A DNA stretch of 4,030 nucleotides. It comes from a virus (Duplodnaviria > Heunggongvirae > Uroviricota > Caudoviricetes). Positions 12 through 3,656 of the stretch are shown piece by piece. The translations under genes were made by a program, and so were the position numbers. The notes beneath the pieces are model-generated. The model did not search any database, had not been told where the DNA came from, and saw only the letters and a program-made list of their open reading frames with translations. How positions within the stretch are numbered: position 1 is the stretch's first letter; each line of letters opens with the position of its first letter. The stretch lies in IMG/VR virus record IMGVR_UViG_2671180878_000023. One strand, 5' to 3'.

Positions 12-49
12 ATAAAAAAAGCCAGCGCCCACTCTGAAGGACGCTGGCT
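12..49 (-). terminator. Rho-independent terminator oriented on the minus strand
   Basis: Seen in sequence: 8-bp arms AGCCAGCG (20-27) and CGCTGGCT (42-49) around a 14-nt loop. On the + strand an A-run (12-20) precedes the stem, so on the minus strand the hairpin is followed by TTTTTTTATT. No U-run follows it on the + strand. Confidence 0.45.
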
Positions 50-274: not shown

Positions 275-481
275 ATGGAAAAAATCACAACAGGTGTGTC
301 ATACACCACGTCAGCGGTAGGGACGGGATACTGGTTACTGCAACTGCTGGACAAAGTCTCTCCGTCCCAGTGGGTGGCAATAGGTGTGCTGGGGAGTCTG
401 CTGTTTGGCCTGCTGACGTATCTGACTAACCTTTATTTCAAGATTAAAGAAGATAAGCGTAAGGTGGCGCGGGGAGAGTAG
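275..481 (+). CDS. S: Class II holin, pinholin of the phage 21 S21 family (68 aa)
   Basis: Translation [68 protein letters not shown] matches S21 pinholin in length and sequence as I recall it. Weakly hydrophobic Gly/Ala/Ser-rich TMD1, hydrophobic TMD2, charged C-terminal tail. GGAG at 260-263 sits 11 nt upstream of ATG 275. The track ORF 206-481 is an in-frame GTG extension with no better start. Confidence 0.9.
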
Positions 482-736
482 TCGATGAATAAACAATACG
501 AACTGGTTGTAAAATGAATATTTCTAACTGAAAAAACGTTCCATGAGGTGAGAAAAGGTCACAGGCAATCAATAACAGGACGTGATGAAAGACCCTTGCA
601 TTTGTGCGCTTTCTCTTTAGATAGCAGCAGATACTGAAAATCTGAGTTGTCGGGGAGTCAGGGATACAGCTGTGCAAGAGTTGGTCATTGTGATTCCATT
701 GAAATCCTGTATGCCATGAAGGGCAGGATTTTATGG

Positions 737-1051
737 CTACCTGAGCTTTGGTGATAGTAAGTTGAAAATTCGCATTTTTTGCTGACATGCGTAACGAGAA
801 TCCCATAAGCAGGGAGGACTTAATTCTTCATTAACCCATGCGTTGATATTATGTTTCAGCCGTTGAAGCATCAGCGGTGTTAATGTTGTGGTAATAATAT
901 CCAGCGTTTTATGTGAGATCTTACCGTAAGGGTCTGCAAGAATGCTGCTTGTTGCTTCGTTATTATCTGCCATCAGAAGAAGTAACTCTGATTTAACGTT
1001 TTCTGTCATTAGTTGTAAAAATCTTCTGCGCAAACTTTCTTTACTGTTCAT
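737..1051 (-). CDS. Hypothetical protein (104 aa) on the opposite strand, inside an AT-rich insert between holin and endolysin; function unknown
   Basis: Only substantial ORF in the 687-bp holin-endolysin gap (482-1168); no + strand ORF of 60 aa or more there. Insert is about 37-40 percent GC against roughly 50 percent or more in the lysis genes. Codon usage is AT-biased (TTA, CTA, AGG). Shine-Dalgarno is weak (GAAG about 10 nt upstream). I recognise no family. C-terminal 25 residues look less protein-like. Confidence 0.5.
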   Translation of the reverse strand: MNSKESLRRRFLQLMTENVKSELLLLMADNNEATSSILADPYGKISHKTLDIITTTLTPLMLQRLKHNINAWVNEELSPPCLWDSRYACQQKMRIFNLLSPKLR

Positions 1052-1111
1052 TTATATGGCTTCATTTGTTGTAATCTGCTGCGTCTCAAGGGATATGTTT
1101 ATGAGAGCGAC

Positions 1112-1140
1112 CATGAGTGTTGGATTATATACCTAACATA
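1112..1140 (-). promoter_or_regulatory. Candidate promoter for the minus-strand ORF 737-1051
   Basis: On the minus strand a perfect TATAAT (+ strand coordinates 1124-1129) lies about 70 nt upstream of the ORF start, with only a weak -35 (TTCTAA-like). By eye only. Confidence 0.2.
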
Positions 1141-1144
1141 TCAA

Positions 1145-1167
1145 GGGATTAGAAATCGATAAATCCC
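1145..1167 (+). promoter_or_regulatory. Hairpin immediately abutting the endolysin start codon
   Basis: Seen in sequence: GGGATT (1145-1150) and AATCCC (1162-1167) form a 6-bp stem around an 11-nt loop containing palindromic ATCGAT. The 3' arm ends 1 nt before ATG 1169. The only SD-like sequence (AAGGGA, 1143-1148) is in the 5' arm, about 20 nt from the ATG. Confidence 0.25.
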
Positions 1168-1168
1168 C

Positions 1169-1702
1169 ATGAACGAAAAAATAAAATACGGCCTGTCGGC
1201 TGCCGTTCTGGCGCTGATTGGTGCAGGTGCTTCTGCGCCTGAAATCCTCGACCAGTTTCTGGATGAAAAGGAAGGTAACCACACCACGGCATACCGTGAT
1301 GGTGCGGGGATCTGGACCATCTGCCGTGGTGCCATTCTGGTGGATGGTAAGCCTGTTATTCCTGGCATGAAGCTGTCAAAGGAAAAATGCGACCGGGTTA
1401 ATGCCATCGAACGTGACAAGGCGCTGGCATGGGTGGAGAAAAACATCAAAGTGCCGCTGACCGAACCCCAGAAAGCGGGGATCGCGTCATTCTGTCCGTA
1501 TAACATTGGCCCCGGTAAGTGTTTCCCGTCGACGTTTTATAAACGAATTAATGCAGGTGATCGAAAAGGTGCCTGCGAAGCGATTCGCTGGTGGATTAAG
1601 GACGGTGGCAGAGACTGCCGTATCCGCTCAAATAATTGCTACGGTCAGGTATCCCGGCGAGATCAGGAAAGTGCGCTGGCGTGCTGGGGTATCGACAGAT
1701 AA
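1169..1702 (+). CDS. R: SAR endolysin, T4-lysozyme-like muramidase (GH24), phage 21 R21-like, 177 aa
   Basis: N-terminal Gly/Ala-rich weakly hydrophobic segment YGLSAAVLALIGAGASAPEIL is typical of a signal-anchor-release domain. Catalytic spacing E-x8-D-x5-T is present (EGNHTTAYRDGAGIWT), as in T4 lysozyme and R21. C-terminal part resembles R21 (RINAGDRKGACEAIRWW versus KINQGDIKGACDQLRRW as recalled). An in-frame stop lies 9 nt upstream of the ATG. Confidence 0.93.
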   Translation: MNEKIKYGLSAAVLALIGAGASAPEILDQFLDEKEGNHTTAYRDGAGIWTICRGAILVDGKPVIPGMKLSKEKCDRVNAIERDKALAWVEKNIKVPLTEPQKAGIASFCPYNIGPGKCFPSTFYKRINAGDRKGACEAIRWWIKDGGRDCRIRSNNCYGQVSRRDQESALACWGIDR

Positions 1703-1994: not shown

Positions 1995-2126
1995 ATGTCA
2001 GACAAACTCATAATGCTGGCGAAGATCCTCTGTGTAATCGTCGGCATTTCATTTTCACTAATGCTGGTTGCTCTTTTTCTTTCCATGGGCTGGATGATGT
2101 TGTCTTCGTCGGGGCTGCTGGGGTGA
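1995..2126 (+). CDS. Candidate small single-pass membrane protein, 43 aa ([43 protein letters not shown])
   Basis: ATG at 1995 preceded by AAGGGG (1984-1989) with 5-nt spacing. One clear hydrophobic helix (about residues 7-30). Its TGA (2124-2126) overlaps an in-frame GTG (2123-2125) of the Rz frame and ends 12 nt before Rz ATG 2138, suggesting translational coupling. Not in the ORF track (short). No family recognised. Confidence 0.45.
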
Positions 2127-2844: not shown

Positions 2845-3105
2845 GCGACCTTATTATTCATGCGCGGTATTGTCGCCGTATTCCTGCATTAACAGAGACC
2901 GCAGCCCGACCGGGAGAATCCTCTGCGCGAGTGTGCGGGGATAATCAAAAACGATACACACCGGGGTTTACCGCGTTAACGGAGCGCGGCGTTGTCCCCT
3001 CATGGTCGCTGGTCCGGTGCGATGGTGGAAGAAGCCGGATGTTTATCACTATTAATTGATAACACAGAAATGGATTCATTGATTTTCAGCACGTTTTTGT
3101 ATTCG

Positions 3106-3149
3106 TATTATTGAACATCTGTTTATTTTACTTTTAACATATTGATAAT
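3106..3149 (+). promoter_or_regulatory. AT-rich candidate promoter region upstream of the 46-aa ORF
   Basis: Region 3060-3200 is very AT-rich and contains several near-consensus hexamers, for example TTGAAC (3111-3116) with TAACAT (3135-3140) at 18-nt spacing, and GATAAT (3144-3149). The exact promoter cannot be fixed by eye. Confidence 0.2.
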
Positions 3150-3200
3150 AAAAAGAGCTGTAAATCTTTAGATGAGTCGATTTTGTCCGGGGAAGTTCAA

Positions 3201-3341
3201 ATGGATTTTATGCTGACGGTTTCTGGTGTGGTTATCCTGTCCATTGCTTATACTGCAGATAAATATGGCTGCCATTTGTTATCACGTATTGGCGCTTATT
3301 GCTCGTTGATGCTGATTTTCTCGTCGCTTTTTTTTGAGTAA
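3201..3341 (+). CDS. Candidate small membrane protein, 46 aa (MDFMLTVSGVVILSIAYTADKYGCHLLSRIGAYCSLMLIFSSLFFE)
   Basis: ATG 3201 preceded by GGGGAAG (3189-3195) with 5-nt spacing. Two hydrophobic segments (about residues 3-17 and 33-45), two Cys, reasonable codon usage. Sits in an AT-rich island (3060-3370) with a promoter-like region upstream. Not in the ORF track (short). No family recognised; it does not resemble Hok as I recall it. Confidence 0.4.
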   Translation: MDFMLTVSGVVILSIAYTADKYGCHLLSRIGAYCSLMLIFSSLFFE

Positions 3342-3470
3342 GTTATATTAATTATAACAAATAATTTTCTGTGTTTTTTCAGGCTATCCCGTCAGACGGG
3401 AAGCCTGTACTGCCGGGGGACGAATGGAAAACTGATGTGTCCGGTAACTGTGTGTTCTGTGAACACCATG

Positions 3471-3656
3471 TTACTTAATTATGTAATTCATACCCGAACG
3501 CTCTGTTGACAGCCTTCTTCTGCAGGCTTCAATAACCCACGCTGAAAAGTTACCGGAACCTTTATGTTCAAGGGCGATATTGAGCTGTTCAATCATGTGA
3601 TTGGGGAAACGGATATTGCGGATTGTGGTTCTGCGGGTCCGGTTTTTCGATGACAT
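3471..3656 (-). CDS. Small ribbon-helix-helix-type DNA-binding protein (61 aa), probably DUF3950 / YlcI-like
   Basis: MSSKNRTRRTTIRNIRFPNHMIEQLNIALEHKGSGNFSAWVIEACRRRL... has a basic N-terminus, a short beta-strand (TIRNIRF) and two helices, the pattern of Arc/MetJ/CopG RHH repressors. Strong SD on the minus strand (GAGGAAAG, 5-6 nt upstream of the ATG). I recall E. coli DLP12 YlcI being very similar, but that is memory, not a search. Confidence 0.8.
   Translation of the reverse strand: MSSKNRTRRTTIRNIRFPNHMIEQLNIALEHKGSGNFSAWVIEACRRRLSTERSGMNYIIK

Follow-up and report, generated by a model that had tools for sequence, protein, structure and literature searches.

ORF104, a conserved antisense gene in the holin-endolysin junction of a Shiga toxin-phage-like prophage of Escherichia coli O26:H11, is probably a moron-like accessory gene

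The lc porin gene of phage PA-2 and the nmpC gene of DLP12 are antisense morons located between the antiterminator gene Q and the lysis genes; the moron concept reportedly goes back to Juhala, Hendrix and colleagues, in 2000, for lambdoid phages. S107 of lambda, S21-71 of phage 21, LydB of P1 and RI of T4 are antiholins or lysis-timing regulators. Such regulators, which are expressed from the late transcript, are membrane or periplasmic proteins or arise from alternative starts within the holin gene. To our knowledge, the known regulators of holins and of signal-arrest-release (SAR) endolysins act in or across the membrane. In the YdfR/DUF1327 family, named after ydfR of the Qin prophage, the YdfR protein of E. 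coli K-12 (103 amino acids, aa) has been reported to interact with the N-terminal, catalytic half of RNase E, and possibly with RNA, which was co-purified with it (PMC13232886, 2026). Here, we analyzed a 4030-bp stretch of DNA from a virus of the Caudoviricetes (IMG/VR record IMGVR_UViG_2671180878_000023), hereafter referred to as the window, in which a gap between the genes for the holin (S) and the endolysin (R) contains a 104-aa open reading frame (ORF) on the opposite strand, ORF104. A preliminary description of this DNA, prepared from its sequence, had proposed that the gap is a horizontally acquired insert that is expressed independently of late transcription.

ORF104 resembled morons in being optional between the same neighbors, in its foreign composition, in its orientation opposite to late transcription and in the presence of its own promoter-like element, but differed from them in that no terminator of its own was found. 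Unlike lc and nmpC, which encode envelope proteins with a known conversion phenotype, ORF104 encodes a small, predicted soluble protein, whose expression in the lysogen is inferred only. It occupies the same S-R slot as YdfR/DUF1327 genes and its product is similar in size to K-12 YdfR, but YdfR is encoded on the late strand and belongs to Pfam family PF07041, whereas ORF104 is encoded on the other strand and matched no Pfam family. As in the case of antiholins, ORF104 is encoded inside or beside the lysis cassette; unlike antiholins, its product is predicted to be soluble, is encoded on the opposite strand and has no detectable relation to them by Pfam or PHROG. A small antisense gene in an identical position was found in Escherichia phage PhiR12_2 (86 aa, PHROG 2572, annotated as 'DUF1823 containing protein'; L101 971-1231, minus strand). 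On balance, we favor the interpretation of ORF104 as an autonomous, moron-like accessory gene of the gap. Its optional presence as an insert, foreign GC content, portability, conserved -10 element and intactness in prophage remnants all point in this direction, and the occurrence of the unrelated PHROG 2572 gene in the position of ORF104 represents the behavior of an accessory slot. Features of the junction and its immediate surroundings were as follows, with X denoting a long, late-strand gene of the YdfR family (PHROG 1085).

20-49, minus strand: terminator-like hairpin with an 11-bp stem (8 GC) followed by TTTTTTTATTA, located between the NanS-p esterase gene, which it closely follows, and the holin gene
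275-481, plus strand: class II (phage 21-type) holin gene S, 68 aa (Pfam PF04971, E 1.9e-32; RefSeq 'class II holin family protein'), left border of the gap
444-806, minus strand: 120-aa ORF overlapping the gap, a mechanical ORF
485-517, plus strand: ten-codon stub of a YdfR/DUF1327-family late gene (MNKQYELVVK, then a stop)
about 558-698, plus strand: degraded remnant, probably of the C-terminal domain of X (PHROG 1085) and interrupted by in-frame stops, from tblastn, DNA alignment and a hidden Markov model (HMM)
737-1051, minus strand: ORF104, 104 aa (PHROG 1853), the real content of the gap according to dN/dS and intact copies
942-1136, plus strand: 64-aa ORF overlapping the gap, a mechanical ORF
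1084-1106, minus strand: inverted repeat TCTCA-N13-TGAGA in the presumed 5' leader/operator of ORF104
1124-1129, minus strand: TATAAT, consensus -10 element of the putative promoter of ORF104, at the inner edge of the module
1131-1168, plus strand: leader and ribosome-binding region of R, common to relatives without ORF104, right boundary of the insert
1169-1702, plus strand: endolysin gene R, lysozyme family (PF00959, E 3.2e-24), right border of the gap

The gap between the holin and endolysin genes extended from 482 to 1168 (687 bp), in agreement with the coordinates and AT-richness given in the preliminary description, and had a GC content of 0.392 (39.2%), versus 0.502 in the holin gene and 0.526 in the endolysin gene. 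GC content at third codon positions (GC3) was 0.37 in ORF104, versus 0.55-0.59 in the flanking genes. With a GC content of 0.38-0.39, versus 0.50-0.53 in the flanking genes, the DNA of the gap is compositionally foreign, and it is missing from some close relatives. ORF104 had been described as the single ORF in the gap. While this ORF exists, the 120-aa and 64-aa ORFs are also located there; for the 120-aa ORF, searches with Pfam and PHROG profiles yielded no match, and most of its DNA (490-734) was not conserved in other alleles. Presence of a known small RNA inside the gap was ruled out, since Rfam 15 covariance models detected nothing in 482-1168; the sole Rfam match in the window (VR-RNA, 1775-1929) was at chance level. 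An origin of the insert from a transposon, insertion sequence or miniature inverted-repeat transposable element was also ruled out: repeats were only short and weak, and none occurred at the insert boundaries.

The complete 4030-bp window matched a lambdoid prophage of E. coli O26:H11 str. 11368 with 100% identity, as well as hundreds of other genomes. Upstream of the window, strain 11368 carried, in this order, genes for a DUF1133 (Q-like) protein, a DNA methyltransferase, tRNA-Ile, tRNA-Arg, TerB, a DUF3927 protein and a SASA (NanS-p-type) esterase. This order corresponds to the layout of a Shiga toxin (Stx) phage minus stx, and the window belongs to a prophage of E. coli O26:H11 that resembles Stx phages but lacks stx. 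The N-terminus of its endolysin R contained a hydrophobic window (residues 9-27) of the SAR type; Stx-phage endolysins have been described as R21-like SAR endolysins (PMC8136144).

ORF104 is a genuine gene under purifying selection. Among 8 alleles, pairwise dN/dS ratios were 0.12-0.39 at dS values of 0.5 to >3. Of 97 complete copies drawn from isolates, IMG/VR and metagenomes, 94 were intact, with lengths of 104-106 aa and 21 distinct protein variants, and the remaining three had a C-terminal frameshift or had lost the stop codon. This conservation as a protein, proposed earlier as a check, extended to distant relatives: length was kept at 104-106 aa down to 30-50% identity, and homologs with 49-79% identity were equal in length to ORF104 and shared its conserved first 14 residues. 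RefSeq/PGAP lists a 90-aa version that starts at window position 1009 (L001 6256-6528). Since the N-terminal 14 aa and a Shine-Dalgarno (SD)-like element are conserved in homologs, this start is too short and the true start is the ATG at 1051. The original annotation of O157:H7 strain EDL933 already included the exact 104-aa sequence, as 'unknown protein encoded within prophage CP-933O'.

A chance ORF in AT-rich junk left by decay of a YdfR-family gene would fit the decayed state of the sequence at 482-736, the tendency of AT-rich DNA to yield spurious ORFs such as that at 444-806, and the deviating 90-aa start in RefSeq. Low dN/dS at high dS, a constant length in 21 variants, the PHROG match and a confidently predicted fold make this explanation highly improbable and, for practical purposes, the spurious-ORF reading is effectively refuted. 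The exact 104-aa sequence occurred on about 1000 contigs, and the insert was carried by 631 of 5426 complete E. coli genomes (about one in nine), with an identity of at least 99% in 622 of 632 matching records. Carriers were concentrated in Shiga-toxin-type lineages, i.e., O26, O103 and O157:H7, including EDL933.

The statement in the preliminary description that the protein belongs to no recognized family was borne out insofar as no characterized family was found. Residues 1-102 of ORF104 matched positions 57-158 of the 159 positions of the phrog_1853 profile (E 3.5e-47), which represents a phage protein family of unknown function. Searches of Pfam (E ≤ 0.01) yielded no family for ORF104, PF07041 included, whereas true PF07041 members in the equivalent slot scored E-values of 1e-34 to 1e-46. 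No match was found in NCBIfam, nor among the PADLOC-DB 2.0 defence profiles at E ≤ 1, and a sequence search of the PDB with the ORF104 family profile found nothing. An exhaustive profile search identified only 20 ORF104-family representatives among 1.84 billion proteins, and a scan of one genome per species found no family member. These two results indicated that PHROG 1853 is narrow and lacks annotated distant relatives; it is an uncharacterized prophage family restricted to Escherichia. Literature searches (ydfR, DUF1327, Stx lysis cassettes, CP-933O, antisense plus holin) identified no paper on the ORF104 gene.

The ORF104 protein has a mass of 12 kDa and is basic (pI 9.3). Structure prediction, which had been suggested earlier, yielded a confident AlphaFold2 (AF2) model (pLDDT 83.8) of an all-helical, five-helix bundle, for which fold comparison gave no informative match and no structural relatives were detectable. 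No transmembrane (TM) segment, signal peptide or lipobox was found, and the maximum 19-residue Kyte-Doolittle hydropathy was 0.66. ORF104 thus shows none of these features, which would be expected of lysis regulators that act at the membrane, such as antiholins, and of superinfection-exclusion proteins of the SieB or Bor/Lom/Cor type, and is predicted to be a soluble cytoplasmic protein without a catalytic motif. Superinfection exclusion, abortive infection and control of lysis timing, the candidate roles named in the preliminary description, accordingly stay speculative, as ORF104 yielded neither a PADLOC match nor a membrane segment nor an informative fold match.

The holin-endolysin junction in this phage group is a hypervariable accessory slot with at least five states. 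Slot states were compared among phages that share this holin and endolysin, at about 84-94% nucleotide identity:

State i: empty, with S and R 4 bp apart, in Min27 (about 92% nucleotide identity)
State ii: a 114-aa late-strand YdfR/DUF1327 gene, in YYZ-2008 and BP-4795 (annotated)
State iii: late-strand forms of 189-296 aa with DUF1327 and/or a coiled coil plus C-terminal domain (X, PHROG 1085), without an antisense gene
State iv: X followed by ORF104 on the opposite strand, in Stx2 phage 86 (gp05/gp06), Stx2_12E129 and many prophages
State v: DUF1327 and an unrelated 86-aa antisense gene (PHROG 2572), in PhiR12_2
State vi: a DUF1327 fusion and an unannotated 233-aa antisense ORF, in Stx1_14040

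The S-R span of 933W-like Stx2 phages, P27 and TL-2011c was the same as in Min27, and the junction of H-19B had a gap sized for the 114-aa YdfR/DUF1327 gene. In PhiR12_2, the PHROG 2572 gene was convergent to and overlapped with the DUF1327 gene and was divergent from R; the possibility that it is a diverged ORF104 was ruled out (hhalign probability 0.2%). The candidate 233-aa ORF of the Stx1a phage Stx1_14040 (L004 2327-3028, minus strand) overlapped the 3' part of an annotated 263-aa DUF1327 fusion and had no Pfam or PHROG match.

Based on these states, two earlier expectations required amendment. Holin and endolysin genes had been expected to abut in relatives of the window, which was the case in Min27 and 933W-like phages, but many other relatives carry a gene in the junction. 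Similarly, the proposed acquisition of an insert was consistent with its foreign composition and its absence from some close relatives, but was not a simple insertion, as the slot is usually filled by a YdfR/DUF1327 gene. A comparison of the spacer across relatives, as suggested in the preliminary description, found ORF104 to be absent from Min27, while other relatives often carried a different, late-strand gene. Homology of the window to YdfR-only phages stopped at 520 and restarted at 1131-1134, the positions at which blastn homology to YYZ-2008, Stx2-86 and Stx1_14040 resumed; relative to YdfR-only phages, the insert boundaries were at about 521 and 1130. Mosaicism of the late regions of Stx phages has been documented previously (PMC8136144).

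The junction in the window is a decayed form of the arrangement S - X - ORF104 (antisense) - R. In relatives, the YdfR/DUF1327-family late gene starts 4 bp past the holin gene. The ten residues encoded by the stub at 485-517 agreed without exception with the N-terminus of the 263-aa DUF1327 protein of Stx1_14040, and eight of them agreed with YdfR of YYZ-2008. Further downstream, the stretch at 558-698 aligned by tblastn with the 213-aa X of Stx2_12E129 (36% identity over 44 aa, with 2 stops); a collinear local DNA alignment had a z-score of 4.7 versus shuffled sequences, and an HMM of the X C-terminal domain matched the window in frame +3 at nucleotides (nt) 567-689 (E 0.018). This weak to modest evidence suggested that the stretch is probably a trace of X. 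Remnants of X were clearer in the prophage remnants L009 (E 5e-5) and L012 (E 1e-9) than in the window. The left part of the gap (482-736) is decayed sequence.

The long forms of the YdfR family (PHROG 1085) carry, in addition, a coiled coil and a conserved C-terminal domain (IGRCMGxLQxAAEIE...DNPPFK...YLKGR). Apart from its DUF1327 part, X matched no Pfam family, and no PADLOC match was found at E ≤ 1; its homologs were annotated solely as 'hypothetical' or 'YdfR family', and its AF2 model was unreliable (pLDDT 47).

Genomic contexts of ORF104 were compared in nine lineages, including distant members with about 30-45% identity. In all nine, ORF104 was antisense to late transcription and its 5' end pointed toward the next lysis gene, R or a holin gene, at a distance of roughly 120-215 bp. 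The cassettes involved used five holin types: Phage_holin_2_1, 2_3, 3_1, a holin_8/holin_3_7 pair and a 90-aa two-TM holin, the last of which lies beside ORF104 in one lineage. Distant members preceded holin genes of the lambda-S, holin_2_3 or P21 type. In the porin context (L017/L018), the order was Q - [lc-like porin and ORF104, both antisense] - holin_8 - holin_3_7 - GH108 endolysin, with ORF104 directly upstream of the lc-like porin gene on the same strand. Only ORF104 (79% identity) and about 120 bp of upstream DNA were shared with the window, and the holin was different. The portable module consists of ORF104 plus about 80-120 bp of upstream DNA (about 737-1130). ORF104 alleles diverged down to about 50% identity while the adjoining R remained 87-100% identical, which indicated that old alleles have been shuffled into a conserved lysis backbone. 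The prophage remnants L009 and L012 retained an intact ORF104 next to fragments of R and X; a holin gene was not detected in them.

Two further arrangements were observed in these contexts. In a decayed remnant in a non-coli Escherichia, at the edge of chromosomal genes (L009-L011 3317-3544), a gene for a PerC-family (Pch-like) regulator was followed, at a distance of about 450 bp and in the same orientation, by an intact ORF104. In the distant relative L108 (6195-6833), an opposite-strand HicA/HicB toxin-antitoxin pair was located between the Q antiterminator gene and X/ORF104, as a further accessory insert in this zone of the late region.

X was convergent to ORF104 in most lineages, with 3' ends that were 8-19 bp apart or overlapped by 18-33 nt; in distant lineages, the X/ORF104 pair was located upstream of the holin gene and not between S and R. 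ORF104 might accordingly be a partner or antagonist of X, in which case the copy in the window would be an orphan. Such a relation could account for the convergent arrangement in most alleles, including the most distant ones, and for the X remnants that flank ORF104 in the window, L009 and L012. It is nevertheless rather improbable, since X is common without ORF104 (a 296-aa form, arranged as S-X-36 bp-R, on >129 contigs), ORF104 occurs without X in the allele of the window (631 genomes), in the porin context and in L020, and the X model that would have to inform on a complex is of low confidence. Each gene was found without the other and an obligate X/ORF104 pair was thereby ruled out: pairing is frequent, not obligate.

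For the moron-like interpretation, the signals that could drive expression of ORF104 are of special relevance. The TATAAT hexamer reported earlier at 1129 to 1124 on the minus strand was present and represented the most conserved six-column window in a 125-nt upstream alignment of 8 diverged alleles (0.98 versus a mean of 0.75); one allele carried TACAAT. Matches to the -35 element of the putative promoter were limited to 2 of 6 positions and, due to this poor -35, a consensus promoter scan did not call the site. A purine-rich, SD-like element was located 8-10 nt ahead of the ORF104 ATG in all alleles. Most MNSK-clade alleles kept the inverted repeat at 1084-1106 or carried a longer version of it, which reached 9 bp in the porin-context allele, but two clades did not have it. 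The phage-86 clade (L003/L005) did not contain TATAAT; in these phages, the region was a terminator-like hairpin on the ORF104 strand (CGCCAG-N10-CTGGCG-TTTTT), about 45-75 nt upstream of the ORF104 start and followed by a strong GAGGA ribosome-binding site.

These signals are consistent with a scheme in which ORF104 would be transcribed leftward from its own sigma-70 promoter, with TATAAT as its -10 element, independently of Q-dependent late transcription. In view of its orientation opposite to late transcription, ORF104 would then probably be expressed in the lysogen. Both transcription and lysogen expression are predicted from sequence. Independent expression, as claimed in the preliminary description, can thus point to the conserved -10 element, but remains an inference to which the weak -35 is an objection. 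The lack of a detectable terminator also weighs against it, as morons would be expected to carry one: no intrinsic terminator (hairpin plus T-run) for ORF104 was found on the minus strand from 737 to 440. It follows from the strand, as stated earlier, that any ORF104 transcript is antisense to the lysis operon. A leftward transcript would meet its first candidate stop at the hairpin at 49-20 and, since no terminator was found before the holin gene, would probably continue antisense through the whole holin gene up to this hairpin. The hairpin also occurred in phages without ORF104 and is therefore not specific to the module. On the plus strand, another terminator-like hairpin was located at 194-220, immediately before the holin gene.

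A transcript of this kind raises the question whether ORF104 serves as a safety device of the lysis cassette, in which the leftward transcript, antisense to the S-R junction, to X and probably to the holin gene, or the ORF104 protein would damp leaky or premature expression of the pinholin and SAR endolysin in the lysogen, or would tune the timing of lysis after induction. The consistent orientation of its 5' end toward a lysis gene in nine lineages and five holin types fits this idea, as does the absence of a detectable terminator from ORF104 to the holin gene in combination with a strong minus-strand terminator just past it (49-20). However, very similar cassettes work without ORF104 (Min27, YYZ-2008, L109-L113), purifying selection acts on the protein and not on RNA alone, and ORF104 was intact in L009 and L012, in which R is truncated and a holin gene was undetected. 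Moreover, a soluble protein without a TM segment is unlike the membrane-acting lysis regulators, and adjacency to lysis genes may merely reflect co-inheritance with the flanks by recombination. We therefore consider a role as a lysis safety device unlikely. A broader proposal holds that ORF104, alone or with X, is an unrecognized control element of the lysis cassette, in which a lysogen-expressed protein and an antisense transcript would silence the pinholin/SAR-endolysin module or X until induction, or would couple it to superinfection defence. Such a function, for which we see a small chance, would explain why ORF104 always abuts a lysis gene across five unrelated holin types.

If, as we favor, ORF104 is a moron-like accessory gene, its protein would most likely bind a cytoplasmic partner (protein or nucleic acid) and thereby benefit the lysogen. 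Since mosaicism and antisense accessory genes are familiar features of lambdoid late regions, these findings are unsurprising in kind; new are a defined, uncharacterized family without detectable structural relatives, a corrected start, module boundaries, a consistent placement and a catalog of slot states, which is useful for annotation of these prophages. ORF104, which has been listed as a 'hypothetical protein' since 2001 and whose start was mis-called in RefSeq, lies within the module responsible for the release of phage and toxin. If expressed in the lysogen, it would be a candidate lysogenic-conversion or phage-exclusion factor and, if it influences the adjoining lysis genes, it could alter the timing of Stx-phage-type lysis.

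Downstream of the endolysin gene, the window contained the following features:

1995-2126, plus strand: strongly hydrophobic 43-aa membrane ORF (PHROG 4906, function unknown), with its stop 12 bp ahead of Rz
2138-2596 and 2349-2555: Rz and Rz1, respectively
2620-2844: 74-aa ORF
about 3201-3341: small hydrophobic membrane ORF (46 aa in RefSeq) without a family match, inside the AT-rich stretch at 3040-3400
3471-3656, minus strand: YlcI/YnfO DUF3950 gene
end of the window: HNH endonuclease gene, start only, which precedes the terminase genes

A 43-aa ORF was present in the equivalent place ahead of Rz in other cassettes (L109-L113), and the copy at 1995-2126 could be a candidate for an unrecognized small membrane part of the lysis cassette. 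The spacer between R and Rz (435 bp, 44% GC) is occupied by an antirepressor gene (ant) in relatives. Between the endolysin and Rz genes, within the late operon, a perfect, bidirectional terminator-like hairpin was located at 1793-1825 (AAAACCCCGTTTG...CAAACGGGGTTTT). A second AT-rich stretch (3040-3400, 34-37% GC) was located between the lysis and packaging genes.

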